From Nemertoderma westbladi (Eukaryota; Animalia; Xenacoelomorpha), in NCBI GenBank assembly GCA_032718475.1, contig JAUCBJ010008559.1:1-50987 (forward strand): a DNA stretch of 50,987 bases, read 5' to 3'. The notes under the pieces were generated by a model. It saw only the letters and a program-made list of their open reading frames with translations, was not told the origin of the DNA and searched no databases. Below are positions 1-45,019 of this stretch, piece after piece; position 1 is the stretch's first letter, and each line of letters begins with the position of its first letter. A program made the position numbers and the translations under genes.

Positions 1-10
1 AGAGAAGACA

Positions 11-14631: not shown

Positions 14632-14668
14632 ATGCCGGAGATTTATTTTAATTCATTTTCTATTTTAG

Positions 14669-21158: not shown

Positions 21159-21418
21159 CTAGGAGTCATCGTCCGCACACAACGCTTGGTTGTAGGCGGC
21201 CGTTGTGCTGGTGGTGCAAGGGTGCACCCTGGATGGGGACGATTTGGACACTTCGCAGGGGTGCACCCTGGATGGGGACGATCTTTGCACCGGCGGTGGT
21301 GTTGACACCGGTGGAGGGGCGGTGACCTTTATAGCACCGGGACCCGAAGATCGCCTTCTCGTTGAGTTCAGATGGCCATGGATAACCTCGACGATCTTTT
21401 TGAAGCGACGATAAGAAC
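21159..21418 (-). CDS. BRSK: BRSK/SAD-1 kinase, terminal exon (end of KA1 domain plus Ser/Pro tail)
   Basis: Acceptor TTTTCTAAG; phase 1; G-SYRRFKKIVEVIHGHL...DDDS-stop resembles BRSK SGPSRRFKRVVETIQ. Confidence 0.88.
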
Positions 21419-22249: not shown

Positions 22250-22430
22250 CTGATTGCAAAGTAAAGAAAACATAATAAGTTTCTTTGCTGGAATCCTTAA
22301 CCCCCACGCATTCCTGTATGTCTACCTGGAATCGGAGATTGCGTTGGAAGACTCCGCCTGTGTAGTAGGATTGTCTCAACTCCGCGTTAAAGCGAGTGGG
22401 GGAGACGACAGTGTGGGATAATTCCTGGGC
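22250..22430 (-). CDS. BRSK: BRSK/SAD-1 kinase exon (KA1 domain)
   Basis: TGTTTTAG|AQELSHTVVSPTRFNAELRQSYYTGGVFQRNLRFQVDI...FFTLQS-G|GTGAGT; 181 bp, phase 0 to 1; resembles BRSK LSHSV.SQTSFRAEY...VFQKPV.FQVDI. Confidence 0.92.
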
Positions 22431-22657
22431 CTAAAACAGGGAAAGGGTGGGATAATTCCTGGGCCTAAAACAGAGAAAGTGTGGGATAATTCCTGGGCCT
22501 AAAACAGGGAAAGTGTGGGATAATTCCTGGGCCTAAAACAGGGAAAGGGTGGGATAATTCCTGGGCCTAAAACAGGGAAAGTGTGGGATAATTCCTGGGC
22601 CTAAAACAGGGAAAGGGTGGGATAATTCCAGGGCCTAAAACAGGGAAAGTGTGGGAT
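22411..22657 (-). repeat. 34-bp tandem repeat made of the BRSK 3' splice site (7 acceptors)
   Basis: Minus-strand unit CTTTCCCTGTTTTAG|GCCCAGGAATTATCCCAC(A/C). Confidence 0.95.
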
Positions 22658-22964
22658 GATTTACATACTAACTACAACACTGTCAGAATTATATTTTTGT
22701 ATTATTTTTTCCCATCTATTACCGTATTGATATATTTAAGTACACGTTTCAATTCAATTTCACAATTAAAAATTAACAATTATAACAATGAATAGCTGTG
22801 TGAGTGATACCAACAAAGATTTGGCCAGGCGATGGAAGCAAGCTTATAAAGCACCTGGCAAGTCTAGAAATTGATCCGTTAATTATATTATATTTTTAAT
22901 TTGGATTTATCAAGGTAAATAAATTTATTAAATGAACTGTTTGTGACATTTATGAATAATAACT

Positions 22965-23176
22965 TAGAACTATTTTATTATATTTTTTAGTTAGTAGAAT
23001 ATTCTTTAGAACTATTTTATTATATTTTTTAGTTAGTAGAATATTCTTTAGAACTATTTTATTATATTTTTTAGTTAGTAGAATATTCTTTAGAACTATT
23101 TTATTATATTTTTTAGTTAGTAGAATATTCTTTAGAACTATTTTATTATATTTTTTAGTTAGTAGAATATTCTTTA
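22965..23176. repeat. 42-bp AT-rich tandem repeat (~5 copies)
   Basis: Unit TTAGAACTATTTTATTATATTTTTTAGTTAGTAGAATATTCT. Confidence 0.93.
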
Positions 23177-23179
23177 AAT

Positions 23180-23790
23180 TTCGTTTATATTGGTAAATAG
23201 TAGAATGCCGGCGAAGTGACATTGAGAGTTGATTCGAGGGTAGTGGACCGTGATAACTCACTAGACTGGGTTGACGATTTTCGATACAGATGGAGAGATG
23301 TATATTATTATTAGTAATTTGACTTAAGATTTTGTGGGAGTTTTCCCATCATAGATTTGTACATAAAAATAAGACTTTGGAAAATGTATAACTTCGGGAG
23401 CTGTAATTCTTGTTGGGTCGAAAATAGTTCATTCGTATGATGTTGCCAGTGTTTTAGATGTACATAACGTATTGCCTTTTTTGGTAGTAGGAAGATGAGA
23501 TTTTTGTCGCAGTACTGTTGGACTCGCTAGTGTTTCCCCAAATAATTAGCGCGAACATAAGATATGGGTGGATAAAGTGTGTTGTACAAAGTGAGGCGAA
23601 TTTAATATGGCATGAAGTTATTAATACTGCCAAGAATTCCTGCGTTTTGGGCAATCTTTAATCTCCTGTATTGCATATGTGCTTGTTCCATCGTTTTAAA
23701 TCGTTGGAAATTATAACGCCGAGAAATGTAGTTTCGGTAACTTGTTTAATTGAACTGCCATTAATGTTGTAAACTGGCTAACTACGTTAG
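23180..23790 (-). mobile_element. Degenerate CR1/L2-group LINE, RT C-terminal fragment
   Basis: Minus-strand translations TTFLGVIISNDLKRWNKHI, HPYLMFALIIWGNTS, KSLIFMYK with frameshifts. Confidence 0.75.
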
Positions 23791-23944
23791 TATTTCTATT
23801 GGATTAAATTAGTATTTTTTTATATAATAAATATTACATTAGTATTTCTATTCCATTAAATTCGTTTTGTTAAGAGTTAGAGATAATTTATTAGATACCA
23901 GCCAATTGTAAACGTTTTGAAATTCGTTAGGTTGAGGATCAAAC

Positions 23945-24500
23945 CTACTACTACTACTATTAGTACTACTACGATCGACATGCTGCATTGCAGCTGCATT
24001 ATATATATTTCATATTTATTAAGAATGTTGTGCCGGCTTGTCAACAAAATTGCGCCGCCACAACTCCCTATCGTCCATGACATTTGCTAGATCATCCGCA
24101 TCTTCAAGGCCAGTGTCCTTTAAGATGCGTCTCAAGAAAGTCATGGGCTGTCCACCATGCTTATTCACTCCATGAGGCTGCCAAAGTACAAGATTATGCA
24201 CTGGCTGGTCCTCACGGCGAAAGCAATGTCCTGCAAAGCGGAGGCGGCTTTGCTCTAGTGTCAAGCTTGGGGGAACCAATGAGACACCTCCAATGTTATA
24301 TAGTGTCTGGTTGGAGATTTGTTTGTGCATTGTACTTGACACAATGCACCCGGCGTAGCATTCTTGTGAATGTGCCATCCAGAGATTTGGTGTCCTCAGC
24401 AGTTAGAGCCCAGCATGGACTCCCATAGGAGTACTGGAACTACTGCTGTTTTAAATAATCGGATCTTAAGTTTCCGATGAATTCTCGGTGACTTCCAAAA
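23945..24500 (-). mobile_element. RTE-clade LINE 3' end
   Basis: KIRLFKTAVVPVLL, RLRFAGHCFRREDQPVHNLVLWQP, DDRELWR; (TAG)n tail; overlaps in sequence with 50860-50987 (inverted). Confidence 0.88.
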
Positions 24501-24553
24501 AGAACAAACGTACTGTAACATTATTATCATCATTTTGAGTTGCAATATCGTGA

Positions 24554-24863
24554 GTAGTATAGGCTTGCTCCTCTTTGTGACAGTTAGACAACACTCATGA
24601 CCCATTGGGTGTTAGGGCGCTAATCGGTCTGATTAATTAGGATAATCAATTAAACCCTAATTAGGAGTCGTAAGACACCTATTAGGGATTAAATGTATTA
24701 ATTAATTGATGATATCTGTCAATTTGGGTCTTATTAGCCTAATTAGGAGGTGTCACCCAGACAGTCTGGCGCCAATGACACCCACATTGTCCTGTGTCAC
24801 ATTCCTAAGTGATGAGTCATGAGTGTGGTCTAACTGTCACAAAGAGGAGCAAGCCTATACTAC
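24554..24863. mobile_element. MITE with ~50-bp TIRs and 8-bp TSD
   Basis: GTAGTATAGGCTTGCTCCTCTTTGTGACAGTTAGAC...GTCTAACTGTCACAAAGAGGAGCAAGCCTATACTAC flanked by TATCGTGA on both sides. Confidence 0.9.
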
Positions 24864-25074
24864 TATCGTGAAGTAAAGACGATAAAGCTAATAATTCTAC
24901 GAATTTTTTGGCTTGGAATCCAAACTGATCATAACATAAAAATTTTGGGTGTAAACGTTAAGCAAACACCTGGTGCGGATACTGGAGCAGAAACCTGGTG
25001 CAGACACTGGTACAGACACCTGGTGCAGGTACTGCACCTGTGTCTACAGCTGTGTCTGCACCAGTATCCGCACC

Positions 25075-25205
25075 AGATGATCTAGCAAATGTCATGGCCA
25101 TGGGTGATAGGGAGTTGTGGCGGCACAATTTTGTCGACAAGCCGTGGCACAGCATTCTTAAAAATGCAGCTGCAATGCAGCATGCCGATCCTAGTAGTAG
25201 TAGTA
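25075..25205 (+). mobile_element. Short RTE LINE 3' end with (TAG)n tail
   Basis: Inverted homolog of 23960-24095; tail abuts the BRSK donor at 25206-25211. Confidence 0.8.
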
Positions 25206-25211
25206 ACTTAC

Positions 25212-25335
25212 CGAAAGGAACGCTTGAACAATGTCAGCTTTTATGGCACTGAGATTCTTATCATTAACAATTACAAGTATTTGTTCTTCGCGATCGGGAA
25301 TCAGCCAGTTCGGAAACCACGGTCTCTTTGATAAT
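25212..25335 (-). CDS. BRSK: BRSK/SAD-1 kinase exon (autoinhibitory segment / KA1 start)
   Basis: TTTCAG|(E)LSKRPWFPNWLIPDREEQILVIVNDKNLSAIKADIVQAFLS|GTAAGT; 124 bp, phase 2 to 0; resembles BRSK ELAK.SWF...EEQIF...DKPLSSIKADIVHAFLS. Confidence 0.95.
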
Positions 25336-25389
25336 CTGAAACATATAGAAGAGATGATTAATCCTAAATCATTAAATGATAATTAATAA

Positions 25390-25980
25390 AATGATAATTT
25401 GAAGCATAAGGTTAAGGTGTTATGACTTGGGACCAACCCCTACCACCACTATATCACTTATTCTGTATCCGAATTACATTGTTCTATTTTTATGTTTCCA
25501 TGACAACCACTGAAAACAGACGTTTTGATACATCGTTAATTTGGGTATAAACTATACAATAAAATGTTCCAAAACTTGATTTGTGTTAGCAGGACCATAA
25601 GCTGGAATTTTTTTGTTAAACTCAAAACCTTCCAGAAATATTTAGTCACCATGGTAACTGGAGTTTATCAAAGTCTATATCATTCAAGTCTATAAATAAC
25701 TATATTTGTAGCAAAACCACTATAGATAGAAACTTAGGGTTTTTCAAATTAACTATAAGCAAAAAAATCTCTATTCAGAAAACCCAGTTACCATGGAAAC
25801 CAGGCTAAACAGATGTTCTAAATTATATAAAGATAATTTGAAAAATAAGGTTAAGGTTGTACGACTTGGGACCATCACCCATTCCCTATATATCACTTAT
25901 TCTGCATCCAATTTACGTTGTTCTATTTTTTTCAGTTTCCATGACAACCAGACATTTTGATAAAAAATCGGTCATTTTGG
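25390..25980. repeat. Diverged direct duplication (~440-bp period), probably transposon-derived
   Basis: ATAAGGTTAAGGT...GACTTGGGACCA...TATATCACTTATTCTG...GTTTCCATGACAACCA at ~25406 and ~25845. Confidence 0.7.
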
Positions 25981-26462
25981 CATAGTAGATGAAGCAATAA
26001 TATATTCTGAAACGCGGTATGTGTCATCTCGCAACCATTCGGGTAGGATATATTGTTCTCATCAATAATCCCAAAGATGCCCAACTGGCATAATTGAGGA
26101 TTTTGCTAAAAGTTGCCAAATTCTACACCTGATTAACTACGATTTCGTTCCCCCAGGGTTTCGTTCCAGAACGTTTTTACTCACTTGGGAACATCCCCGG
26201 TTTCATGTTATAAAGTGTGTTATTATATTGTAACGTTAATGATAATAACGATAATGATCGATTTTTATAGCCCTCGTGGGCGTACCCCTAAAAATACACT
26301 CTCGTGACACTGATCTTAGTTGCCGTATTACAACATTATTACCCGTAATACATTTTTTGGCTCAGAGCTTGCTAGGCTTGCACTATTGGAAACTCTCCAA
26401 ACCTCTAGCAGGTGATAATTACAGGTCAATTAAGCACCTCACGTTTGACCCCGTCCACCGGC

Positions 26463-26500
26463 TATAAAAAGGCCAGTTTCCTTTATTTTACTTCAGTCAG
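26463..26500 (+). promoter_or_regulatory. TATA box plus initiator core promoter candidate
   Basis: TATAAAA at 26463 and TCAGT at 26493, canonical ~30-bp spacing; bracketed by a duplicated 33-mer (26357 and 26540). Confidence 0.5.
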
Positions 26501-26679
26501 TGTAACTCAGCCTTTAGATGCAGCCCTTTGCACGCAATCTTGGCTCAGAGCTTGCTAGGCTTGCACTATTGGCATACTCACCACGACAGAAGTGTGGCTT
26601 GTTAGTGTGGGTAAGTTAGCAAAGCTCTACCACACCAGCCCAGTGCTTGCGTACTCTGCCCGGTGGCTCCTCTGTCCGA

Positions 26680-28592
26680 CCCAGGCCCGACCGTGGAGCT
26701 GTGAGGACAAAGTAGCAGATATCCTGGTGTTTGCACTATGACCAAGTTTCCAATAGCGTGAAAGCTACCCAAGTTTCCAATAGCGTGAAAGCTACCCAAG
26801 TTTCCAATAGCGTGAAAGCTACCCAAGTTTCCAATAGCGTGAAGCTGCACATGTATTTTACGATTTGCGGAATAAATACGGATTTATTTCACATTTGATT
26901 GTGTTTTGCGATATATTTTTTTTTTGTGTATTAGTTGGATGAATATATATACATTACATGAATACAATGAACAAAGCTCCTCCGCCATTAGGAAAGTATT
27001 GCGCCACCTGCGGAAACGGCGACAATTATTGCCGTGCGCCCTCGGCCCAACCAACCGTGAAGGGAAAATCCGCTGTTAAGATTCCCGGACGATGTACCTA
27101 CACAAAAGCTGGGATCACACCTTTCTGTTGTTGGTGTAAGGTGCGCGGGCATAACACCGCCTGCTGCCCCGACATGCTGACACCATGCGAGCACTGTGCT
27201 CTGCGCGGTCACCATTCAAACGCGATCGCCAAGAAGAATAGAGAATGTTGGAGAATGTAGAGAATGTTGAAAATTTAAAGCTTGAAGAACAAATCGCTAG
27301 ATAGGAAGAACTTGAATATCTCGCCTGCGGCCATTCCAAACTCAAATGGCGGCTGGAGATCGCAGGTACGAATGCCCGTTATTATTTACTATTTACGGCA
27401 AGGTGTATTTACCTTCCCCGTTAACCCTTGGGGGTTTGAGTTGCGTCGGTACGATACGGTGGATCAGTACCAGTTCACGTATAAAGCCTTAATGCGTAAA
27501 TCAACTCACTCCGAGGTCGGTCCAGTTGCGGTACAGACGTGGCTTCTCAACTACGTTCCCGGACAACCCTGGGTTTGGCTCGTGGACGGAACGGCTACCG
27601 ATTGGGAACTGAATTATGTTCCCGATCCAGATATCGTGCTCCCCAAAGCACTTCCAGCGTTAGGGATCGGGAGCGAAGGTTCTTATTGGGCAGTATCCGA
27701 TGGAAAGCGGAGATGCCGGATCTCCAGTGGGAGGATCTCCTCGATCCGGAGGCTATGGAGGAAGGGCTTTCTTCCTGACTCTTCTGGGTGGTGAGGCTCA
27801 TACCAACCCTTTTCATGAGGCATGGGTGTTACGCAAGTAATATCCATACTCACTCTCTGGGCGGGGCTTGAGCTTCACAACTTCAGAGCGGGGAAGAGAG
27901 TGGGCAACGGGGGGAGGTCGAGAGAAAGATAGTATTCTCTCGGGCGAAAAGACAACCATCGATCGATACTGACTCATCAATAGACTACAGAGATAAACTC
28001 TTAACACGATGATGGGAGAAAGATCAACCCCAACTTGACGATCCTGAACTCATTTGTGCAATGACCTTCAAGCCGATCCCATTGAACTCTAGGCCGAGTC
28101 ATATTATTTAGGACCTTTTATATAATACCTGATTGCTTCTTTAGTTCCCTACGTGGAACAATGCAGTACCAAGATTTGTCTAATTTGTTTGTTGATAAAG
28201 GTAGATAATATAAATTTTATATCAGTGCAGTTGATTTTCTCTTAGGATCAATTATTTTTCAAAGTCTTGGCTTCAAAAATCATTTTTATGACCACTTTTC
28301 CAAAATTTGTCATCCCATCATTTGTAATCGAGTCCAGCCCTAGTCTTTGCTTCACTCTACCCGCTGGGTCTTCGGCCCGACCGAGAAGTTCTGAGGACAA
28401 AGTCGCTAACTTCCTATGCCCAACGGACATAGAAAAAACCGAGTGTTTGCACTAATCGACGTTAGACCCAAGTTTCCAATAGCGTGGAGCTGCACCAAGT
28501 ATTTTACCTTTACGATTTTCGGAATAAATACTGATTTATTTCAATTTTGATTTTGTGTTTTGCGATAGATTTATTAGTGTATTGGTTGGATT
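26680..28592 (+). mobile_element. Unclassified element: diverged direct repeats flanking a frameshifted zinc-knuckle ORF
   Basis: Repeats at ~26685-26940 and ~28375-28592 share GCCCGACCG..TGAGGACAAAGT, GTGTTTGCACTA, CCAAGTTTCCAATAGCGTG, CGGAATAAATAC; ORF 26958-27260 has CWCKVRGHNTACC and CEHCALRGH; ORF 27282-27794 follows. Confidence 0.55.
26742..26848. repeat. 27-bp tandem repeat (4 copies)
   Basis: Unit CCAAGTTTCCAATAGCGTGAAAGCTAC. Confidence 0.92.
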
Positions 28593-28749
28593 ATTTTTGC
28601 TTACTTTGGTTCCTGACGAAACCAAAGCACCCCTCGAACCCGGTTTCTCTTTTTCCGAAATTATACAGTTTACCAGAAGGAAGACATTAATAATACCTGG
28701 AAACTATAAATTTTTCACTTTCCATTAATATTTTGACTTCAGGGAAATT

Positions 28750-31700
28750 TTTTGTACTTACGGTGTTTTTGCATTATACAACCTGTATGTTAATACATAT
28801 TTCAAGACACATATTTCAATAAAACCGTGTACGTTTTCTTATTATCTATGCAATGACAAAATACCGCAAGTCTTGTTGACTTACGGTTTTTTTGCATAAA
28901 TTTAAGTGACTTACGGTCTTTTTCCTTTGAAACACTATGGACCAAAATCACAAAAAGTGGCCAAAAACGTTTCCCACACGATTCGACTTAATTTTAGAAT
29001 GAAATTTTTTTTGGAACCTAGTAAAGTTATATATATTTTTGAAGATAATTTTATGGTCCAACAGATGCACAAAAAATCATACTGCCACTCCGACTTTGGA
29101 AGATTTTACCGACCTTTTAGTACTAAAAAATGCAGGTTTTTCAATTGTCCAAAAAAGTTCATTGCATTCTGGGGGATGTATTTTGACATCTACTGGGTGT
29201 ATTTCAACAAGTTATAGCTCATTTTAAAGCTAAATAATAGAGGAATGGAATGGAATAACTCCCAAATTGTTTTATTGATATCATATTAAAATAAAACAAT
29301 ATATAATGTACCCCTATTTTTGACAATTACTTGTCCCAAACGGTAACAACTGAATTCACCAATAGGTTTTTATTTGGATTCTATAAACTAAATTCTTATT
29401 TGAAAGGAAAATCTTCAAGAAGTGGAATGTTCCAGATTTTACGAAAAAATACTAAACACAACCGGAGATATGGCTGGTTTTATACGTGCGAGTCGATTAT
29501 GTCAATTAGGATTGTCCCATGTGTAACACCAAGTGCACTGCTTTACCATGCTCTAGAATCAGTTCTAACAAACTTGATATGAAGATTCAAATATCAGAAG
29601 ATAGCTAAGTTCTTGGTCTTTTGCGTGAGTAATCATTTGTGGCAACAATTGACTATGGAATAGACTTTAGTTTCTTTTACATTTATCAGCATGAGCTTTG
29701 TCCCACCTGTAACAAAAGCCTGTAACACAAAAAATCGTTACAAGGCGGGACGTCCCACATGTAACATGTAAATCGAATAATTTTGGGCTACAGAATGGGA
29801 GATGTCTCCCCTGTAACACTTTAGTAGTGCAGACTTTATAATATTGATAAGACTGTAGGTCATGCACACAGAACAGCAGTATTAACTGTGAATTGGTACT
29901 TACCTACCTACAGTAGTACCGCGGTAACAGTATCAGTGCTGTCTCTTTATTGCGTTTGATTATTGCGTTTATTGCGTCTGCGCAGTGCATAGAGTTTACT
30001 ATTGACTACTAAACAAACTAATCCTAACCAGAACCAGTTATAAGACACTGATACAGACACTATGTGACTACGGTATATAATGGAGACCACATTTCATTAC
30101 TTATTAGACATCACCTCGCCGTTCCGGTATCAAGATACTGATTGTAAATAAAAATAGGACTAATAATACTGATCTGTCTTATATGGAATGCGGTCCATCT
30201 TTGATCTATCTTCTGCGATTGGGAGAGGGTGATTGGGAGCGCCGTGAGGGGAGCAGTTAGAGGTGGGAGGGAAAAAAATAGAGGTGCAAGGGGAGCAGTT
30301 TTAGGTGTGAGGGGAAAAGGTAGATGTGCAAGGGGAGCAGTTGGAGGTGGGAGGGGAAAAGGTAGAGGTGCAAGGGGAGCAGTTGGAGGTGCGAGGGGAA
30401 AAAATAGAGGTGCAAGAGGAGTAGTTTTAGGTGTGAGGGGAAAAGGTAGATGTGCAAGGGGAGCAGTTGGAGGTGCGAGGGGAAAAGGTAGAGGTGCAAG
30501 AGGAGCAGTTGGAGGTGTGAGGGGAAAAGGTAGAGGTGCAAGTGGAGCAGTTGGAGGTGCGAGGGGGGAAGGTAGATGTGGAAGGGGAGCAGTTGGAGGA
30601 GCGAGAGGAGTAGTTAGTGCGAGCGCAGTAGGTAGAGGTGCGAGAGGAGTAGTTAGTGCGAGCGCAGTAGGTAGAGGTGCGAGAGGAGTAGTTAGTGCGA
30701 GCGCAGTAGGTAGAGGTGCGAGAGGAGTAGTTAGTGCGAGCGCAGTAGGTAGAGGTGCGAGAGGAGTAGTTAGTGCGAGCGCAGTAGGTAGAGGAGAGGT
30801 GCGAGAGGAGTAGTCAGTGCGAGCGCAGTAGGTAGAGGTGCGAGAGGAGAATGGGAGGATCTGTGGAGGGTGTGGGAGACAGGGTGAAAGGTACAGGAGG
30901 ATCTGTGGAGGGTGTGGGAGACAGGGTGAGAAGTACAGGAGGATCTGTGGAGGGGATGGGAGACGGAGTGGGAAGTACAGGAGGAGCCGTTGAGGGTGTG
31001 GGAGACGGAGTGGGAAGTACAGGAGGAGCCGTGGAGGGTGTGGGAGACGGAGTGGGAAGTACAGGAGGATCTGTGGAGGGTGTGGGAGACGGAGTGGGAG
31101 GATCTGTGGAGGGTTTGGGAGACGGAATGGGAAGTACATGAAGATCTGTTGAGCGTGTGGGAGACAGGGTGAGAAGTACAGGATAATCTGTGGAGGGCGT
31201 GGGAGACAGGGTGAGAAGTACAGGAGGATCTGGGGAGGGTGTGGGAGAAGGGTGAGAAGTACAGGAGGAGCTGTGGGGGGTGTGGGAGACAGGGTGAGAA
31301 GTACAGGAGGATCTGAGGGGGGTGTGGGAGACAGGGTGAGAAGTACAGGAGGATCTGTGGAGGGTGTGGGAGACAGGGTGAGAAGTACAGGAGAATCTGT
31401 GGCGGGCGTGGGAGACAGGGTGAGAAGTACAGGAGGATCTGTGGAGGGTGAGGGAGAAGGGTGAGAAGTACAGGAGGATCTGTGGGGGGTGTGGGAGACA
31501 GGGTGAGAAGTACAGGAGGATCTGAGGGGGTGTGGGAGACAGGGTGAGAAGTACAGGAGGATCTGTGGAGGGTGTGGGAGACAGGGTGAGAAGTACAGGA
31601 GGATCTGTGGAGGGTGTGGGAGACAGGGTGAGAAGTACAGGAGGATTTGTGGAGGGTGTGGGAGACAGGGTGAGAAGTACAGGAGGATCTGTGGAGGGTG

Positions 31701-32930
31701 TGGGAGACAGGGTGAGAAGTACAGGAGGATTTGTGGAGGGTGTGGGAGACAGGGTGAGAAGTACAGGAGGATCTGTGGAGGGTGTGGGATACAGGGTGAG
31801 AAGTACAGGAGGATTTGTGGAGGGTGTGGGAGACAGGGTGAGAAGTACAGGAGGATCTGAGGAGGGTGGGGAAGATGGAGTGGAAGGTACAGGTAGATCT
31901 GTGGAGGGTGGGGATGAAAATGATAATGAACAATTTACAGATTTTGAAGGAGTGGGGGGTATGGGAAGATACGTGGCGGCTATACAAGATAACGTTTGGA
32001 ATACAGGAAAATCTATGGAGGGTGAAGATGATGGAGTGGGGAGTACAGGAGGTTCTGTGGAGGGTGGAGATGAAACTGATGAACAATTTATAGGTTTTGA
32101 CTAACTGCTCAGCCATAGTGATATACAGTTATAAACTCAGTAATAAACTCGTCATACTTTGTGAATTTTCATATAAATCGTCACTAAAGTACCTAAAAGT
32201 GGTTAAAATGTTTTAATAAACTCTTTATGTTTATTTGATAAACTATAATATTTTATAATTTTTCCAGAAATGGGGACCATAAAGATTTATTATGATTGAG
32301 TTTATTTTCAAATAAGCTTTATTGGGATGTGTTACTGGGATCTGGAATGGCTGCATAGCTCCCACTCAGAGACGAAATCTAGGTTAATTTAACATTTCAG
32401 TGTAATTACAACTGGTGTTACATGGTGGGACAAATTGTTACAGGCATCGGAAATCACCATTCAAGGGCTCTGATTGGCTGATATCGGGCGTTACATTGTG
32501 GGACAAGTGTTACAGGAATGGACATCTGTTTTTCTCAATTATTTGTTACCATGAGGTCGGGGCTATTGGGAAATTACCACCATTGAATTCAGCGCATCAA
32601 GAGCTTTCTGGTGATATATAATATTACATACTTTGGGAAACTTTTTTTTTTTACAAAAAAAATAATTTTTTTGGCCACTTTTTGTGATTTTGAGCCTATA
32701 CGTATATGTTGTGACTTACGGTCTTTCTACATTGCATATCTCGAGAACTAGATTATATACGGTGTTCTCGATTATACCATTAGATAAGGCGCACTTTTTA
32801 GACCCGGAAAAAGTGAAGAGTGGATTTTGGAAAAATGCGACTTGCGGTCTTTTTACATTGCACGGCAGAACTATCGTAAGAGGTTGTAATGTCCGTAAAG
32901 TACAAGCCGGCAAAATACCGTGTTTATGAG
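28750..32930. mobile_element. Possible degenerate DNA transposon, boundaries uncertain
   Basis: Both ends carry repeated GACTTACGGT motifs and an inverted pair AAAATCACAAAAAGTGGCCAAAAA (~28944) / TTTTTGGCCACTTTTTGTGATTTT (~32668). Confidence 0.4.
30236..31870. repeat. Purine-rich compound minisatellite (45-, 39- and 42-bp units)
   Basis: Successive units such as GGAGCAGTTGGAGGTGCGAGGGGAAAAGGTAGAGGTGCAAGG, GAGGAGTAGTTAGTGCGAGCGCAGTAGGTAGAGGTGCGA, GTGTGGGAGACAGGGTGAGAAGTACAGGAGGATCTGTGGAGG. Confidence 0.92.
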
Positions 32931-33193
32931 AGCTATTTTGAGTTAGTCATTATTGCAATAAAACCTAATCAATAAAAAGATTGTGAATGCACTTGGAAAA
33001 CTTCAGGAGCTTGCCGTGCCTTGGGCACAATAAATCCTTTACAGACTGGAATTTTAAATTTTCACCTATTTAATATTAGTTAATATAAATAAAATGGTGG
33101 TTATTGTGCTTTCAACCCCTAAGGCTTTGTCAGTTTTGATTCTGGTACCATGAAAGTTTTTTTTATATGATAGAGCAAAGGTGGGGCAACATA

Positions 33194-34916
33194 TATCCTA
33201 CGGTGCTACTAACTCTATCCTACGGTGCTACTAACTCTATCCTACGGTGCTACTAACTCTATCCTACGGTGCTACTAACTCTATCCTACGGTGCTACTAA
33301 CTCTATCCTACAGTGCTACTAACTCTATCCTACGGTGCTACTAACTCTATCCTATGGTGCTACTAACTCTATCCTACGGTGCTACTAACTCTATCCTACG
33401 GTGCTACTAACTCTATCCTACGGTGCTACTAACTCTATCCTACGGTGCTACTAACTCTATCCTACGGTGCTACTAACTCTATCCTACGGTGCTACTAACT
33501 CTATCCTACGGTGCTACTAACTCTATCCTACGGTGCTACTAACTCTATCCTACGGTGCTACTAACTCTATCCTACGGTGCTACTAACTCTATCCTACGGT
33601 GCTACTAACTCTATCCTACGGTGCTACTAACTCTATCCTACGGTGCTACTAACTCTATCCTACGGTGCTACTAACTCTATCCTACGGTGCTACTAACTCT
33701 ATCCTACGGTGCTACTAACTCTATCCTATGGTGCTACTAACTCTATCCTACGGTGCTACTAACTCTATCCTACGGTGCTACTAACTCTATCCTACGGTGC
33801 TACTAACTCTATCCTACGGTGCTACTAACTCTATCCTACGGTGCTACTAACTCTATCCTACGGTGCTACTAACTCTATCCTACGGTGCTACTAACTCTAT
33901 CCTACGGTGCTACTAACTCGGGCTGCCATCCTACGGTGCTACTAACTCTATCCTACGGTGCTACTAACTCTATCCTACGGTGCTACTAACTCTATCCTAC
34001 GGTGCTACTAACTCTATCCTACGGTGCTACTAACTCTATCCTACGGTGCTACTAACTCTATCCTACGGTGCTACTAACTCTATCCTACGGTGCTACTAAC
34101 TCTATCCTACGGTGCTACTAACTCTATCCTACGGTGCTACTAACTCTATCCTACGGTGCTACTAACTCTATCCTACGGTGCTACTAACTCTATCCTACGG
34201 TGCTACTAACTCTATCCTACGGTGCTACTAACTCTATCCTACGGTGCTACTAACTCTATCCTACGGTGCTACTAACTCTATCCTACGGTGCTACTAACTC
34301 TATCCTACGGTGCTACTAACTCTATCCTACGGTGCTACTAACTCTATCCTACGGTGCTACTAACTCTATCCTACGGTGCTACTAACTCTATCCTACGGTG
34401 CTACTAACTCTATCCTACGGTGCTACTAACTCTATCCTACGGTGCTACTAACTCTATCCTACGGTGCTACTAACTCTATCCTACGGTGCTACTAACTCTA
34501 TCCTACGGTGCTACTAACTCTATCCTACGGTGCTACTAACTCTATCCTACGGTGCTACTAACTCTATCCTACGGTGCTACTAACTCTATCCTACGGTGCT
34601 ACTAACTCTATCCTACGGTGCTACTAACTCTATCCTACGGTGCTACTAACTCTATCCTACGGTGCTACTAACTCTATCCTACGGTGCTACTAACTCTATC
34701 CTACGGTGCTACTAACTCTATCCTACGGTGCTACTAACTCTATCCTACGGTGCTACTAACTCTATCCTACGGTGCTACTAACTCTATCCTACGGTGCTAC
34801 TAACTCGGCACTGTCGTGGGGCAACATATATCCTACGGTGCTACTAACTCTATACTACGGTGCTACTAACTCTATCCTACGGTGCTACTATCTCTATCCT
34901 ACGGTGCTACTAACTC
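33194..34916 (-). repeat. 22-bp minisatellite (~77 copies) made of a BRSK 5' splice site
   Basis: Minus-strand unit GA|GTTAGTAGCACCGTAGGATA; first copy is the donor of exon 34915-35038. Confidence 0.96.
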
Positions 34917-35038
34917 GGGACTGTCGATTGGCTCAGTAAATATTTCCTCTGTATTTATTTTGCGTCGATGAAACCTCGGCGATCCCATAAACGAATTCTT
35001 TAGCGATGAGATTTTATTCTTCCACGGCAAAAGATACC
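34915..35038 (-). CDS. BRSK: BRSK/SAD-1 kinase exon (short conserved region)
   Basis: TTTATTTAG|G-YLLPWKNKISSLKNSFMGSPRFHRRKINTEEIFTEPIDSP-E|GTTAGT; 124 bp, phase 1 to 2; matches the BRSK hallmark W..RL.SIKNSFLGSPRFHRRK. Confidence 0.96.
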
Positions 35039-35263
35039 CTAAATAAATAAACAACCAAGACTGCTAAGATGGGGCAGAAATTAGTGTCAAAAGGACCAAG
35101 TCTGTTATTAAATAATCATTAATTAATTAATTAATTAAATAATCATATAAATTACATTTTAAAAAGTTATATTCTTTCTGTTCAAATAACTATTGTAAAA
35201 ACGGACTACCTGAACAGGATTAGGACTTTGCTCCTGTGAATGGATAGGTGATAATCGACTCAC

Positions 35264-35685
35264 CAGATATCCCGGGGAATGGTTTGTTATTGTAGACAGT
35301 TGGTTCCTCGCTTCCGGGTCTAGCATGGTACGCCGATTCGCAGCCGGATGCAGGAACCGCGCTCGCCGCGTGTTTCCGATGAGTTGGGGTCGGCGGCACA
35401 GTCTGTGTGTGAACGGAGGAGAACCGCTGGGCGGCGGTGGGGTGTGCAGGGAGAGACTGGGCTGCGGTGGTGGGCTGGGTAGGGGCGGGCGGTGGCTCGG
35501 TGTAGGGTGGTGGGGTGGCCGTGGACGCATGGGCAGGGGCGGGTGTTTGATCCACTACTATTGGTTGCGGGGCAGGGTCACCACGGACGACGGCCAATGG
35601 GCTGCAGTTGTCAGGGAGTGGGGCAGCATCCGATCCACGGTGTTGAGGAGTCAACTGGACTGGGGAAGGTTGAAGACTTCGGGAT
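35264..35685 (-). CDS. BRSK: BRSK/SAD-1 kinase exon (Pro/Ser/Thr-rich linker)
   Basis: CTTGCTCTTCTAG|..SRSLQPSPVQLTPQH...PFPGIS-G|GTGAGT; 422 bp open, phase 2 to 1, fits both neighbours. Confidence 0.82.
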
Positions 35686-36241
35686 CTAGAAGAGCAAGAA
35701 AGTAACCATCAGACCTAATATTGATATTTAAGGGTGGGGGGGGGGGGGGGGGTACACCATTTTGGTCCAAAATTTGATAATAATTTTTATGAACGATTAT
35801 AATGCACGATTGAATGGTGTTTCTAAATCTGAAAACCGCTATTTAATAGCTCTTTTAGTTTTTAAGTTATAACAATTTCTGTTTAGGGAATCCTATTGAA
35901 ATTACTATTACTATGTATAAAGGAAAGGTCGATTATCTCAAAATATTTTCTTTATGAAATTGTCACATTTCAAAACCCTACCGGTACTACTTCTACAATT
36001 TGTGAGCAATTAGTCTGAAAATTTCTATGGGTGTCTACATAGCCACCCTGCATAAAAGTATCAGACAACTTGACATTTTTTGTTAATAAAATTTAATACA
36101 TTTATAACAAACCTAAAAAAATTAGCATAAATTTGCAGCGCCACCTAGCGGTACAGAATTATTTTCACAAAATGTCGCCTGATAGTTATGTTGCCCCATC
36201 TTTGATCTCATATAATTATATATATGTTTTTATATATCTTA

Positions 36242-36809
36242 GGGGCCGTGCACAATAATGATGTCACGGTCGAGGGGGGGGGGGGGGGGGGGGGGGGGGT
36301 AGGGGGGGGTAGCTATACTTTATGACGTCACAATAGCACTTTGGTGAACAAATAAAATACATCAACAGCCAAAGTGAAATCTATTCAAGTAATCGCGAAT
36401 TGAGGGGATGAAGTGTTAATTCCAAGTGGCGATAAAGATGAAGAACACCACATTGACTGGGTAGATAAGGACGCGGTAGAGTTAGACCCAGGAAGTGGCA
36501 CAATAGTCGGTAGTATACCTGGTGCACTTCCGGTGATCGATGTCCTCATTCCCATGGGACTGAATATGCGGGGTGTCTTCCTTGTTTAGTCATTGTGTAC
36601 AGCTGAATTAATGAAGTATTAACATTTAGTTTTAATAACATAATAAATTCAAATTTAACATTTTTTATTAACAATATATACATATTTTTGGTGATGTGAC
36701 GTTCCAGGGGGGTTTACAAAATTCGTTACGGATTGTGACAGAGGGTGGGGGGGGGGGGGGGTCGAAAATCGTCAAGAAAAGCGTGACGTCATCATTTGAG
36801 CACGGCCCC
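36242..36809. mobile_element. PIF/Harbinger-like MITE
   Basis: TTA|GGGGCCGTGCACAATAATGATGTCACG ... CGTGACGTCATCATTTGAGCACGGCCCC|TTA: ~27-bp TIRs and 3-bp TTA TSD; internal poly-G runs. Confidence 0.85.
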
Positions 36810-36978
36810 TTATCACTATTATAGCTCCCAGTATATTCTTCCACTCCATCTTATGTATGAATTAATATAAAAATGCATTATTGCACACTGTAAGGGAAAT
36901 CTAGTTTTTATAAAGATTTCGTCCGTTTATTCTTATAGCGGACACTGCACGTAAAACGAATTGCCGCAATAAACTTAC

Positions 36979-37115
36979 AATTGTCCCTGAACCTTTATTG
37001 ATGATTTCCTGCATTGTGTTGGCGACAACGCACTACCACCACCAATGTTTATCTCATTGGTCAATTGTGGTCGAAATCCAATTACAGGTGTTTGGGGCTT
37101 CGCAGTAATTCTCAT
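36979..37115 (-). CDS. BRSK: BRSK/SAD-1 kinase exon (linker)
   Basis: CATTTTAG|MRITAKPQTPVIGFRPQLTNEINIGGGSALSPTQCRKSSIKVQGQ-L|GTAAGT; 137 bp, phase 0 to 2, exactly bridges the flanking exons and gives ...RVDSP-M as in BRSK. Homology otherwise weak. Confidence 0.75.
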
Positions 37116-37619
37116 CTAAAATGCAAAGCAAATGTACATATCCGAAACATTAGGAATTCCAAACCTGAGACTTACTGAAATTTTGAACGAGCAACATGTA
37201 GCGACGCTCGCCATAAGCACAGTTACTATATTATTATTATTTATTAAACTAATAATAGTAATTGTTTCATAATCTCGCATTTCGCAACTACAAATTTTAC
37301 GAAATATTAAACGATAAAATTTATTGACTCAACTTTATCGAAGTTTAAACAGGTTCAAACCGTACCTTTTAATGCTTTTATGTCGCTATGATATGGGGCT
37401 ATTTATAGGCAGTAGGCATACCTTTACATAGCGCTATTGCAATTTAGTTTTGCGCAGTTTTGCGCATTAGTTTATTTAAATTAGCGCGCTAGCAGTTCAA
37501 TATAGAAGTTAAAAATTTGAAAAATTTCACCAAAAAAATTATACACTTTACTTAAACAACATAAGTTTCATATTCAAAGTTTTTCATATTAGTTAACGTT
37601 ACAATATTGAACTGCTGTC

Positions 37620-40600
37620 AGGTAAGGTCCCCAGATCCTGCTACCACTATGGCAGTAATGTGGTACTACCTGTAGCTGTCAGCCCAGTAGGGCAGACCCG
37701 ATAAGCATAGCCTATTCATTATTTAGTTGATCAAGAGTGGGTTGGTTTAGCCCCGTCAACTAAATAAGTTATTGAGGGCTATAGCTCCTAGGGCACCATT
37801 GAAGGCAAAGGCTTGATACGCACCTGCATTAGAGATGATACACGCCCCGCCCTGTCTATACTGGATACCTAACCCAAGAGGCACACTTGGTTCAGGGTGT
37901 AACAAATGAACCCCTACAGTCGGCAGCAGGGCTGTAGGCCATGGATAGGCGGAAGGTAATCAACCAATGGCTATAGACATGCTGACAAGGTCGGCGGAAG
38001 GTAATCAACCAACGGCGACCTACTGCGAAGACGCTTGTAGGAGTTGCGACCACAAGCGGTTTACTTCCGCAACTGAAATATATGAGTATGAGAACCCTCC
38101 AGGAGAAATACCGGCTCGGTCGTCGTCCGGGTCAACAAGGACCGCGTACCTCAGTGGTACACCAGGCTGGGGTCGATAAATTGGCTACTGGAACAGAAGA
38201 CAGAGAAGAAAGAAGAACCAACCTGTTGAAATGTAAAAAGACACTAAAGATTGCTACAATGAAGGCACGTACGCTGAAAGCACATACCAAACAGGGTGAC
38301 ATGGTCGCTCTGGCAATGGAATATAACATCGACATCATCTGCATCCAAGAACATCGGATTTGTCATGAAGACACTGCCATGAAGTACAATGACATTGGAA
38401 ATGGATGGACGTTAGTAACAAGCTCAGCAGTAAGAAACTCGGCCAATGCATCAATTGGAGGAGTAGGAATTCTGCTAAGCCCATTTGCACTTAAGACCCT
38501 AAACAACATCGAATCTATAAATTCCATGGTTATGATCGCAACATTTGATGGGAATCCCAAGGCAACAGTTATATGTTGCTACAGTCCAACCAATACCTCA
38601 GAACCAGAACAAGCAGTCAAGTTTTATGAAGAACTGACTGGACTTATAAAGGACATTCCGAAACACAATGTTAAAGCAGAAAACTTAGCAGCTCTTTTAC
38701 TAAGTTTGTTTAGTAATTTTTTTTAGTTATTGTTATTGTCTAGTTATTTTTATATTTATCTAAATATTTGACAATTAACCATTTTTAGATTAAGCACTGA
38801 CCACTTTATTTGTGTATTCTAATCTGTAGTCCTAAATTTAATTTTATTACTTCCCCGACTATTTTACCTAAAACATTATTGCATAGCGGGGACCCACATG
38901 GAAACGAGGTCCGCCTCATGTGGCTATCCCATTAAGTGACAATTTTATCGATATATCTCGCGGAAGATGTACTGTTCATATATTTTTCATACCATACTGA
39001 TTTTAATTCATAACAAAAATATCTCGTACTGTATCTATAACAATTGTATGGTTCCTAACGGTCTATACCAACTTAAATGTTATATATTATGTGTCCCGTC
39101 ACTAATAAATCAATATCAAATATCAAAGTCATTGCTGGTGACCTGAATGCGCAAATTGGCCCAGAAGACATCAAGGGTTACTCCTATAACACCAGTTCTA
39201 ACAGAAATGGGTACTTACTTTTAGACCTAATGGAAGACTGTGAATTGATACCAACAAACAACACATTCGAAAAGAGTAAGGGGAAGCTATGGACCTTTCA
39301 ATACCCTAATGGAACCAAAGCACAACTGGATTACATTCTTATAAACAAAAAGTGGAGAAACAGCATGATCAACTGCGAGGCATACAGCTCGTTCAACCTA
39401 ATTGGTTCGGACCACAAAATTGTGAAGCAAATCAAATATGACTGGGAGAAACTCAGAACTGACAATGCTGTAAAGGATGCTTATACAGTAGAAGTTCAAA
39501 ACCGCTTTGAAGCACTTCAGTCAATGGATGAAGACCAATACACCAATTCAATATACCAGAATATAATAACAGCCCACAAGGAATCAGCTAAGAGGCATAT
39601 ACCCCAGAAACCCAAACGAAAACAGTATGTGCCATGGCAAAACTCTGAGGTTACTTGTAAGAGAGAAGATCTTAAGATAGCCTACAAAGTTAAAACCGAA
39701 CAACCAACAACCGAAAACATTAACAAGGTTGAGAAAGCTAAGGACGATCTTAAATTGGCTTACAACATCAGCCAGGAAAAGTACATACAGGATAAAACTG
39801 AAGCAATTACAACTGCTCACATACAGTAACAATCAAGACTTACCCGGCAAACTGTAAATGAGGTATCTGGTCGGAAAAGTTGTGCAAAGGGGCGCCTCAA
39901 AGCCGATAGTCCTGAAAAACGTGTTGGGAAGTGGAAAAATCACTTCAGCAACTTGCTTGGGCAGCCACCAAACATCGAGGTCAGCCCTACAAGGAAAATA
40001 TATGACAAGACTCTACCTATAGAAACAGGGGACTTCACACCTGCCGAACTCCAAAGAAGCATTAAAAGCATGTCCAATAATAAAGCGAGTGGATTAGATG
40101 AAATCCCAGCGGAGGTATGGAAAACCGGAGTGCTAAACAGACCATTGTTGAATGTTTGCAACCGGATGTTAAAAGGGGAAAATCCACCACCAATTTGGAC
40201 TAAAGGTCAACTAAAGCCTCTCCCCAAGAAAGGAGACCTCGGCGTGGGATCTGTCTGCTTGTGGTAGCTGCCAAAATATACAATAAAATGATTCTATATA
40301 GGATTAGGCCTCACATAGAGAAACTACTGCGTAAGAGCCAAAACGGATTTCGACCAAGTAGATCAACAATAGCTCAGATACTTGCACTACGGAGACTGAT
40401 TGAAGGAATTAAGTCAAAGAATCTCCGCGCAGTCATGACTTTTGTGGACTTCAAGAAGGCATTCGACTCCATCCATAGAGGTAAAATGCTTGAAATCCTA
40501 AGAGCTGATGGAATACCAGAAGTAATTGTTGCTGGCATTGGATTGTTATATTGTGACACAGAAGCGCAGGTACTCTCACCAGATGGTGAAACTGAGTTTT

Positions 40601-41332
40601 TCTCAATCCTGGCTGGCGTACTGCAAGGTGACACATTAGCACCATTACTATTTGTAATTGTGCTGGATTACGCAATGAGGACGGCCACAAAGGGTGAATA
40701 TCTGGGATTCACACTTCAAGAACGCAGAAGTAGTAGATATCCGGCAACTACAGTCACAGACACCGACTTTGCGGATGGCATCGCCCTGCTCTCTAATACG
40801 CTAGCAGATGCACAGCTTCAACTAAATAAAGTGGAGAGGGCTGTTAAGGAGGTTGGATTGCATAAAAATGCTACAAAGACCGAATTCATGACCATTAATG
40901 TTGATGGAAACTTGACAACCATTGATAATAATCAACTAAGGAAGGTCAATGACTTCCAGTACCTTGGATCATGGATAGAGAGTAGCAAAAAGGACATAGA
41001 AGTTAGGAAAGCAAAGGCTTGGGTAGCTCTATCAAAAATGGATACCATCTGGAAATCAGATCTCTCCAGGCACCTGAAGACTAAGTTTTTTCGAGCCACA
41101 GTGGAAAGTGTATTTTTATACGGGGGTGAGACCTGGACACTGACTAAATTACTTGAACAACGAATTGATGGTTGCTACACAAGACTACTAAGGGCAGCCC
41201 TAAACATCAGCTGGAGACAACACATGAAAAACGCCGAGCTTTATGGTACAATACCACCTGTATCAACCACCCGCCGTGAACACAGATTAAGATTCAGTGG
41301 GCACTGCTGGCGAAGTAAAGACGAGGTCATAC
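37620..41332 (+). mobile_element. Near full-length decayed RTE-clade LINE (APE endonuclease plus RT), antisense in a BRSK intron; 5' boundary approximate
   Basis: ICIQEHR, GGVGILL, YSPTN, AGDLNA, QLDYIL, SDH; QNGFRPSRST, FVDFKKAFDS, GVLQGDTLAP, FADG (catalytic DD mutated), RLRFSGHCWR; stop at 39827 and frameshift near 40260; 3' end replaced by the satellite. Confidence 0.95.
38676..39125 (+). mobile_element. ~450-bp insertion in the RTE endonuclease, likely a CR1/L2-group LINE 3' end
   Basis: Splits PKHN-VK/IK-VIAGDLNA; contains a stem-loop (CCACATG...CATGTGG) and ends AATAAATCAATATCAAATATCAAA. Confidence 0.65.
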
Positions 41333-41334
41333 CA

Positions 41335-44300
41335 GCAACACTCACCGGAGTTTTCACTCCTCCGTGGGGGGTCGTGCAACACTCACCGGAGAATGCACCC
41401 ATTTCCGTGGTGGGTCGTGCAACACTCACCGGAGAATCCACCCGTTTCCGTGGAGGGTCGTGCAACACTCACCGGAGAATCCACCCGTTTCCTTGGAGGG
41501 TCGTGCAACACTCACCGGAGAATCCACCCGTTTCCGTGGAGGGTCGTGCAACACTCACCGGATTTGCGTGGAGGGTCGTGTAACACTCACCGGAGAATCC
41601 ACCCGTTTCCGTGGAGGGTCGTGCAACACTCACCGGAGAATCCACCCGTTTCCATGGAGGGTCGTGCAACACTCACCGGAGTTTCCACCCGTTTCCATGG
41701 AGGGTCGTGCAACACTCACCGGATTTGCGTGGAGGGTCGTGTAACACTCACCGGAGAATCCACCCGTTTCCGTGGAGGGGAGGGTCGTGCAACACTCACC
41801 GGAGAATCCACCCGTTTCCTTGGAGGGTCGTGCAACACTCACCAGAGAATCCACCCGTTTCCGTGGTGGGTCGTGCAACACTCACCGGATTTCCGTGGAG
41901 GGTCGTGCAACACTCACCAGAGAATCCACCCGTTTCCGTGGAGGGGAGGGTCGTGCAACACTCACCGGAGAATCCACCCGTTTCCGTGGAGGGTCGTGCA
42001 ACACTCACCGGATTTCCGTGGAGGGTCGTGCAACACTCACCAGAGAATCCACCCGTTTCCGTGGAGGGGAGGGTCGTGCAACACTCACCGGAGAATCCAC
42101 CCGTTTCCGTGGAGGGTCGTGCAACACTCACCGGATTTCCGTGGAGGGTCGTGCAACACTCACCAGAGAATCCACCCGTTTCCGTGGAGGGGAGGGTCGT
42201 GCAACACTCACCGGAGAATCCACCCGTTTCCATGGAGGGTCGTGCAACACTCACCGGAGTTTCCACCCGTTTCCATGGAGGGTCGTGCAACACTCACCGG
42301 ATTTGCGTGGAGGGTCGTGTAACACTCACCGGAGAATCCACCCGTTTCCGTGGAGGGGAGGGTCGTGCAACACTCACCGGAGAATCCACCCGTTTCCGTG
42401 GAGGGTCGTGCAACACTCACCGGAGAATCCACCCGTTTCCTTGGAGGGTCGTGCAACACTCACCAGAGAATCCACCCGTTTCCGTGGTGGGTCGTGCAAC
42501 ACTCACCGGATTTCCGTGGAGGGTCGTGTAACACTCACCGGAGAATCCACCCGTTTCCGTGGAGGGGAGGGTCGTGCAACACTCACCGGAGAATCCACCC
42601 GTTTCCATGGAGGGTCGTGCAACACTCACCAGAGAATCCACCCGTTTCCGTGGAGGGGAGGGTCGTGCAACACTCACCGGAGAATCCACCCGTTTCCGTG
42701 GAGGGTCGTGCAACACTCACCGGAGTTTCCACCCGTTTCCATGGAGGGTCGTGCAACACTCACCGGATTTGCGTGGAGGGTCGTGTAACACTCACCGGAG
42801 AATCCACCCGTTTCCGTGGAGGGGAGGGTCGTGCAACACTCACCGGAGAATCCACCCGTTTCCATGGAGGGTCGTGCAACACTCACCGGAGTTTCCACCC
42901 GTTTCCATGGAGGGTCGTGCAACACTCACCGGATTTGCGTGGAGGGTCGTGTAACACTCACCGGAGAATCCACCCGTTTCCGTGGAGGGGAGGGTCGTGC
43001 AACACTCACCGGAGAATCCACCCGTTTCCATGGAGGGTCGTGCAACACTCACCAGAGAATCCACCCGTTTCCGTGGAGGGGAGGGTCGTGCAACACTCAC
43101 CGGAGAATCCACCCGTTTCCGTGGAGGGTCGTGCAACACTCACCGGAGTTTCCACCCGTTTCCATGGAGGGTCGTGCAACACTCACCGGATTTGCGTGGA
43201 GGGTCGTGTAACACTCACCGGAGAATCCACCCGTTTCCGTGGAGGGGAGGGTCGTGCAACACTCACCGGAGAATCCACCCGTTTCCATGGAGGGTCGTGC
43301 AACACTCACCGGAGTTTCCACCCGTTTCCATGGAGGGTCGTGCAACACTCACCGGATTTGCGTGGAGGGTCGTGTAACACTCACCGGAGAATCCACCCGT
43401 TTCCGTGGAGGGGAGGGTCGTGCAACACTCACCGGAGAATCCACCCGTTTCCATGGAGGGTCGTGCAACACTCACCAGAGAATCCACCCGTTTCCGTGGA
43501 GGGGAGGGTCGTGCAACACTCACCGGAGAATCCACCCGTTTCCGTGGAGGGTCGTGCAACACTCACCGGATTTCCGTGGAGGGTCGTGCAACACTCACCA
43601 GAGAATCCACCCGTTTCCGTGGAGGGGAGGGTCGTGCAACACTCACCGGAGAATCCACCCGTTTCCGTGGAGGGTCGTGCAACACTCACCGGAGAATCAA
43701 CCCGTTTCCATGGAGGGTCGTGCAACACTCACCGGAGAATCCACCCGTTTCCGTGGAGGGTCGTGCAACACTCACCGGATTTCCGTGGAGGGTCGTGCAA
43801 CACTCACCAGAGAATCCACCCGTTTCCGTGGTGGGTCGTGCAACACTCACCGGATTTCCGTGGAGGGTCGTGCAACACTCACCGGAGAATCCACCCGTTT
43901 CCATGGAGGGTCGTGCAACACTCACCAGAGAATCCACCCGTTTCCGTGGAGGGGAGGGTCGTGCAACACTCACCGGAGAATCCACCCGTTTCCGTGGAGG
44001 GGAGGGTCGTGCAACACTCACCGGAGAATCCACCCGTTTCCATGGAGGGTCGTGCAACACTCACCAGAGAATCCACCCGTTTCCGTGGAGGGTCGTGCAA
44101 CACTCACCGGAGAATCAACCCGTTTCCATGGAGGGTCGTGCAACACTCACCAGAGAATCCACCCGTTTCCGTGGAGGGTCGTGCAACACTCACCGGAGAA
44201 TCCACCCGTTTCCGTGGAGGGTCGTGCAACACTCACCGGATTTCCGTGGAGGGTCGTGCAACACTCACCGGAGAATCCACCCGTTTCCGTGGAGGGGAGG

Positions 44301-44482
44301 GTCGTGCAACACTCACCGGAGAATCAACCCGTTTCCATGGAGGGTCGTGCAACACTCACCGGAGAATCCACCCGTTTCCATGGAGGGTCGTGCAACACTC
44401 ACCGGAGAATCCACCCGTTTCCGTGGGAGGGTCGTGCAACACTCACCGGAGAATCCACCCGTTTCCGTGGTGGGTCGTGCAA
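41335..44482 (-). repeat. 43-bp minisatellite (32- and 48-bp variants, ~75 copies) made of a BRSK exon end plus 5' splice site
   Basis: Minus-strand unit TTGCACGACCCTCCACGGAAACGGGTGGATTCTCCG|GTGAGTG = [12 protein letters not shown] plus donor. Confidence 0.97.
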
Positions 44483-44585
44483 CGAATGACGTTCTCGTAG
44501 AATGTCGGGGGCGTCTTCCTGACAAGGTTTACGCAACTTCCGGTCCAACAGAAGGTAGTAAATAACTCGTTCTTGGTTGTTATCG
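44447..44585 (-). CDS. BRSK: BRSK/SAD-1 kinase exon (UBA C-terminal half)
   Basis: TTTTGTGTAG|[25 protein letters not shown]...[12 protein letters not shown]|GTGAGT; 139 bp, phase 2 to 0; matches BRSK NQEKMIY.LLLDRK...[10 protein letters not shown]. Confidence 0.96.
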
Positions 44586-44731: not shown

Positions 44732-44911
44732 ACATCGGCCAGTATTCTATCAACTAATTTATCTTTAGCTTTGAAGCAGCCAAGCGAATTCATGTTGGCT
44801 AGAACATCGGGGTCAATGTCTTCCTCGGAGATTAGGTTGACCTTGGATGACGACATTGACGACGTTGGGCCAGTGGAGAAGGGCATGGGGCCACGGTCGT
44901 CTTTCAATTTA
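44732..44911 (-). CDS. BRSK: BRSK/SAD-1 kinase exon (UBA N-terminal half)
   Basis: TATTTCAG|..KLKDDRG...EEDIDPDVLANMNSLGCFKAKDKLVDRILAD-V|GTAAGT; 180 bp, phase 2 to 2; matches BRSK EDIDPDVLDSM.SLGCF. Confidence 0.95.
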
Positions 44912-45019
44912 CTGAAATATACGAAATAAAGAATTATTTCTAATTAATGATAATTAGTTGACAAAAATTTGGTGAATGTACACAGATAATTCCCCAATAA
45001 AAATCTTAAAATGATGAAT

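Follow-up and report, generated by a model that had tools for sequence, protein, structure and literature searches.

Why should three introns of a single gene begin or end with tandem arrays of the very splice sites that delimit them? The question is raised by a contig of the xenacoelomorph Nemertoderma westbladi (JAUCBJ010008559.1, assembly GCA_032718475.1; its positions 1 to 50,987 are the whole stretch of DNA analysed, hereafter the window), in which a gene of the BRSK/SAD family carries two such arrays on donor sites and one on an acceptor site. These arrays belong to an already described kind, the mirages or junction-spanning minisatellites of amphioxus and human genes, and our preferred reading, to which we assign a probability of about 0.65, is that they are three independent minisatellites spanning real BRSK/SAD splice sites and likely neutral.

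Results

Tandem Repeats Finder (TRF) recovered three arrays on the minus strand at the places proposed in an earlier note on this DNA (41335-44482, 33194-34916 and 22411-22657), and our counts of 75, 77 and 7 units agree with the copy numbers given there (about 75 donors, about 77 donors and 7 acceptors). Array 1, a donor mirage (41335..44483; TRF period 43, 75.1 copies), contains 75 donor copies, i.e. the real donor at 44447|44446 and 74 decoys, 61 of them identical to the real site over positions -3 to +6; its unit joins 37 exon bases to 6 intron bases and occurs in length variants of 32-48 bases arranged in a higher-order pattern, and the far edge of the array is diverged. Array 2, also a donor mirage (33194..34916; TRF period 22, 78 copies; about 77 units), has its real donor at 34915|34914; of its decoys, 75 are intact, and in one more, the nearest to the real donor, the GT is destroyed. 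Since its unit comprises only 2 exon and 20 intron bases, array 2 repeats mainly the intron start and spans the boundary only marginally; two rarer, longer units with 7-11 exon-like bases accompany the 22-base unit, so that more than one duplication has spanned this donor. Array 3, an acceptor mirage (22410..22661; TRF period 34, 7.4 copies), has 7 acceptor copies, the real one at 22431|22430 and 6 decoys, with a unit of 14 intron and 20 exon bases. The description of the unit as the junction itself is thus accurate for arrays 1 and 3 and has to be relaxed for array 2. The three units are unrelated, as had been claimed, their pairwise scores being reached by 381, 273 and 504 of 1000 shuffles. 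Unit-end matches of 5 and 10 bases at arrays 1 and 3 (none at array 2) may represent seeds or partial copies, and the flanks of arrays 1 and 2 matched nowhere else in the window by self-BLAST.

The host gene was modelled as eight exons and seven GT-AG introns, the number of introns originally reported, with 521 codons open on the minus strand. The first exon in the window, E1 (44732..44911; UBA region, AG/GT ends), and the KA1-domain exon E7 (22250..22430) returned two PDB matches each, every one of them BRSK1/2 (BRSK2 chains 4ynz and 4yom for E1; BRSK1/2 chains 4yom and 5iri for E7), and Pfam KA1_BRSK was matched by E6 (25212..25335; domain start, positions 3-34, slightly below the curated cut-off) and by E7 (positions 36-94). 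The UBA-like region and the BRSK-type KA1 domain that mark BRSK/SAD membership are therefore both present, and full-length homologues of fish, mite and crab share 30-32% identity with the model over about 450 aligned residues. E2 (44447..44585), whose final 37 bases make up the exonic portion of the array-1 unit, has an open frame and gave 65 library matches, four of them low-complexity-like; three of the six looked up carry BRSK/SAD or Ser/Thr kinase names. E4 (35264..35685) and E5 (34915..35038), the latter with the first copy of array 2 as its donor, appear in the spliced contig described below. E3 (36979..37115; AG/GT ends, phase 0 to 2 restoring the frame) is predicted from frame and phase only, and E8 (21159..21418; AG acceptor, frame open until the stop codon at 21159) is the putative last exon. 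None of the exons found in the window encodes the N-terminal AMPK-related kinase domain, and on that side the spliced contig extends a further 1,561 bases. A search for a full-length protein from the same or a related species found none, which is weak evidence. We discarded a further candidate exon at about 36.4-36.6 kb, which lies in a high-copy repeat and meets a stop in each of the three frames read from its acceptor. E7 contains another AG 6 bases from its start (22425-22430, minus strand), repeated in every array-3 unit, an in-frame alternative acceptor being possible.

To the question of which copy the spliceosome takes, sequencing runs gave a direct answer at one border. Four of the eight listed runs were compared over 34880-36700; the test stretch was present in three runs, none recorded as RNA, and run X3 was taken as RNA because its contig skips two GT-AG introns. 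This contig of 3,638 bases covers 35263-35685 and 34911-35037, skipping a 225-base intron, and its loose end maps from 25302 onward in E6. It thereby joins E5 to E6, which identifies the exon-proximal copy at 34915|34914 as the donor used. A decoy-spliced contig on array-2 units was not found in X3, a weak negative since contigs drop rare forms, and the X3 depth at the array-2 edge equals that expected from the exon contig alone (64.7 = 131.6 x 30/61). Normal mRNA through the exon-proximal site was hence seen in RNA at one of the three borders, and use of the modelled exon boundaries by transcripts is documented for the array-2 donor, in the X3 spliced contig only. At the array-1 donor and the array-3 acceptor, use of the proximal site is predicted, given that only the proximal sites keep the frame and that homologue spacing agrees: the Pfam KA1_BRSK match reaches position 34 in E6 and resumes at position 36 with residue 2 of E7, and among the 8 of 23 listed homologues longer than 300 residues that show the KA1 motif in context, seven keep the 3-residue spacing of the model and one has an insertion. 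The assertion that the exon-proximal copy is the functional one is accordingly observed at one array and predicted at two. Its companion, that decoy use leads to a stop or a frameshift, was borne out, with 0/74, 0/75 and 0/6 decoys productive, that is, in-frame and stop-free, at arrays 1, 2 and 3.

Such a uniform lack of productive decoys could suggest a function, for instance arrays serving as landing platforms for U1/U2AF, or as a poison-splicing rheostat in which copy number sets the BRSK level via decoys and nonsense-mediated decay. In its favour may be listed that all 155 decoys are non-productive, that 61/74 array-1 decoys match the real site at -3 to +6, that the human genes 6-16 and CBS use their two nearest pseudo-sites (PMC1557585), and that a title cited in the latter paper connects activity with the length of the CBS repeat; splicing could thus be affected incidentally. 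However, non-productivity is automatic, because stop codons (TGA or TAG) are built into the splice signals and each of the three periods is 1 mod 3, so that a decoy in frame has to read through a stop, and the extension of the arrays into the intron alone, which is anatomically correct as first described, is forced by geometry, the extra copies of a junction-spanning unit having to be intronic once the proximal site is used. Both properties being automatic, neither is a sign of function. Moreover, the decoy signals are no better conserved than the rest of the units: one distinct substitution in the splice core was found at each array against 3.1, 1.6 and 1.3 expected (P 0.15, 0.46 and 0.59), in a test of little power based on 15, 4 and 3 events at arrays 1, 2 and 3. 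The decoy nearest the array-2 donor has lost its GT, and the exon contig explains the X3 depth at that edge, though rare forms are dropped from contigs. Recursive splicing, for which an acceptor is immediately followed by a donor, finds no substrate in the common units of arrays 1-3, which by eye carry a donor or an acceptor and no pyrimidine tract-AG followed by GT. The platform, rheostat and recursive-splicing ideas are thus unsupported, and we consider a functional role of the arrays very unlikely.

Tandem arrays are by no means confined to the junctions. The 55 TRF rows for the window, once overlaps had been merged and a G run as well as three arrays (period 17-20, about 2-3 copies each) set aside, yielded 16 distinct arrays that occupy 20,930 of 50,987 bases (41%), 13 of which touch no BRSK splice site; this supports the neutral alternative already considered in the earlier note, namely frequent local tandem duplication. 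Arrays make up 33% of the BRSK intron sequence, and the seven introns hold ten arrays, three of them spanning a junction, with 11 of the 14 splice sites free of any array. GC content is 0.40-0.59 in all eight arrays longer than 500 bases, 0.39 in non-array intron and 0.52 in exons. The intron preceding E1 has two further long arrays (45015-45923 and 46703-49016), of which the former begins 104 bases away from the acceptor and does not span it, and three abutting purine-rich arrays (30247-31914; periods 42, 39 and 42) lie in the E5/E6 intron, far from junctions.

An additional donor mirage may exist outside the BRSK gene. An array of 8.5 kb (6082-14632, plus strand; 45-base unit, about 183 + 13 copies) ends 36 bases before the acceptor of the last exon of a Ras/Rab-family GTPase gene convergent with BRSK (14669-14943, plus strand; PF00071 positions 107-161, Cys-X-Cys tail). 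The unit holds a donor-like CAG|GT(G/A)G, such a site occurring in 5% of shuffles, and the array tail joins the Ras-family exon in an open frame, in a register that looks right from Rab sequences. This array is therefore a candidate donor mirage of the neighbouring gene. No unique upstream Ras-family exon that could be the parent was found in 1-6200, and a PDB search with the array frame returned only a designed repeat protein, giving no support to a fourth mirage. A scan of viral contigs found no relatives of the Ras-family exon. By eye, positions 1-5000 (plus strand) resemble a decayed long terminal repeat retrotransposon, with a Cys/His knuckle and a protease-like motif.

Transposon-like sequence also borders array 1 and possibly array 2. 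An element of the long interspersed nuclear element (LINE) type (38260-41340, plus strand) carries endonuclease- and reverse-transcriptase-like frames, has an AT-rich interruption at about 38700-39130 and is cut short where array 1 starts; its reverse transcriptase frame (40267..41340, plus strand; RVT_1 E 5.6e-26, 0 stops) is antisense to BRSK and enters the far end of the array. Beyond the same motif, another remnant in the window runs on for about 60 codons, so that a deletion probably lies at the array-1 far edge. The far flank of array 2 (33080-33194) resembles by eye a high-copy element at 36.1-36.2 kb, a likeness that self-BLAST did not report, and the original intron may accordingly give way to a transposon fragment after about 20 bases. 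Very high-copy repeats fill the E3/E4 intron (35734-36700), where the summed contig depth reaches about 190,000 against 10-25 on exons; their 36.4-36.6 kb part mimics an exon.

Long near-perfect arrays are prone to assembly error, and none of the run contigs compared crosses an array; the arrays or their lengths could in principle be artefacts of this sort. Nevertheless, unit variants recur in ordered higher-order patterns, and the summed contig depth at the array-2 edge, which is not to be read as copy number, is 305.9 in run X2 and 229.4 in run X4, which comes from a second sample, compared with 24.7 and 0 for the exon next to it. Run X1 also shows the higher-order junction of this array, but X1 may be the source. 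Taken together, we regard an artefact as extremely improbable.

Discussion

The earlier note did not recognise these arrays as a described recurrent system, which was wrong, for mirages are on record in amphioxus (PMC3087553, PMC3902484) and like arrays in five human genes (PMC1557585). In the lancelet globin genes BflGb6 and BflGb9 mirages occur at 5' and 3' boundaries and are spliced normally, the mechanism that generates them being termed unclear and a route to intron gain being proposed (PMC3087553); lancelet PGBD5 carries two arrays (PMC3902484), and amphioxus Adh3 and troponin C mirages are cited in these two papers. The BRSK arrays share with them the tandem copying of intron/exon boundaries at both 5' and 3' ends, the head-to-tail arrangement, periods (43, 22 and 34) inside the range of about 10-160 bases, GT/AG signals kept in the extra copies (74, 75 and 6 intact decoys), more than one array per gene as in PGBD5, and copies that are homogenised inside the array but diverged at its edges. 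Splicing was reported as normal there and was seen to be so here at one of three borders. They differ in being found in another animal and in reaching up to 77 copies, as compared with 2-7 in the globin and PGBD5 genes. In human F7 intron 7 the first unit of a 37-base variable number tandem repeat spans the donor and, of the sites available, the most upstream alone is used; 6-16, CBS, LMNB2 and PDGF are given as like cases (PMC1557585). The resemblance to array-1 and array-2 structure lies in a first unit that spans the donor, identical pseudo-donors behind it and use of the most upstream one (oriented scanning), seen here for array 2 and predicted for array 1; unlike BRSK, the human genes have 5-25 copies in a single array each. 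Some use of two near decoys is on record for 6-16 and CBS. The CBS 844ins68 allele, a 68-base junction duplication at an exon 5' edge whose upstream copy is removed to leave normal mRNA (PMC2630376), parallels what is predicted for array 3, although it is a single duplication and not an array. Other routes by which repeats modulate human splicing are treated in PMC10078293.

Several observations weigh against a neutral origin by ordinary duplication. The RNA evidence reaches one of the three sites, in a sample whose arrays may differ in length from those assembled here; the core substitutions of array 1 fall below expectation, though not significantly; and a fourth junction array possibly lies within the same window. 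Under a model of uniform seeding over 15,251 collapsed bases, 0.17-0.27 junction arrays are expected where three are observed, with P(>=3) of 0.0021 for ten arrays, 0.0005 for seven (cluster merged and weakest dropped) and 0.0007 for the seven with at least 5 copies, and still 0.003-0.013 when the seedable space is halved. These P values are post hoc, coming from one gene in a window singled out for its pattern, and some of the intron sequence consists of high-copy repeat. Comparison with random placement, which the earlier note had suggested genome-wide, thus shows an excess within this gene; the excess is real locally, and it cannot be generalised from this window.

An excess of this kind is what would be expected if a mutational process targeted exon-intron borders, so that junction units seed arrays far above chance without any function, for example through slippage or breakage at splicing-related transcription pauses, or through repair beside fresh transposon insertions or deletions. 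Besides the local excess of about 10-fold, this proposal can draw on the array-2 donor, spanned by at least two separate duplications (the 22-base and the longer unit), on array 1, which abuts the truncated LINE frame at a point 11 bases beyond a donor copy, on the candidate beside the Ras-family gene, which if true would strengthen it, on the two arrays of lancelet PGBD5 (PMC3902484) and on the unclear mechanism noted for the lancelet globins (PMC3087553). Against it, the pattern concerns a single gene chosen in hindsight, P climbs to 0.02-0.07 if only a quarter of the intron is seedable and to 0.14-0.37 if only a tenth is, and 11 of 14 splice sites remain array-free. We therefore hold border-targeted mutation to be possible, on balance doubtful, and grade no higher its extension to the genome, i.e. 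preferential seeding of minisatellites at exon-intron borders as suggested by 3-4 mirages in a 51-kb window, about tenfold what uniform seeding predicts. The excess seen here probably reflects chance in a window that was selected, combined with a putative preference of arrays for GC-richer seeds, supplied by exon edges.

The reading that we favour, neutral mirages, can be told as a sequence of steps. The region is rich in arrays of 20-50-base units, mostly away from junctions. A piece of 22-43 bases would have been duplicated via slippage or break repair, perhaps helped at arrays 1 and 3 by the 5- and 10-base end matches. By simple geometry, a duplication within an exon would break the frame and be lost, whereas one that spans a junction would leave the exon and one splice site whole, hence all extra copies would be intronic. 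Such duplications would be tolerated as the spliceosome takes the exon-adjacent copy, a choice observed at one donor and predicted at the other two sites; by analogy with the human cases, oriented scanning and exon definition would make it, and rare decoy use would yield a stop or a frameshift and likely decay. Unequal exchange could then have expanded and homogenised the arrays. The divergence of edge copies and the higher-order repeats of array 1 fit ordinary turnover.

The BRSK set is a large and clean case of a known oddity, with runs of as many as 77 near-identical splice signals at donor as well as acceptor borders of one gene, only the first of each run being used, as seen for the array-2 donor and predicted for the other two borders. 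Such arrays are a trap for gene prediction and, at the same time, a ready minigene substrate for the study of splice-site choice. A genome-wide enrichment of arrays at junctions would matter more, since the origin of mirages is described as unclear (PMC3087553) and our literature searches turned up no genome-wide test of it. If it held genome-wide after GC matching, splicing, or transcriptional pausing at splice sites, would prove to mark DNA through mutation, and the N. westbladi genome would become a natural library of thousands of decoy arrays of 7-180 copies in which splice-site choice and intron gain could be tested.

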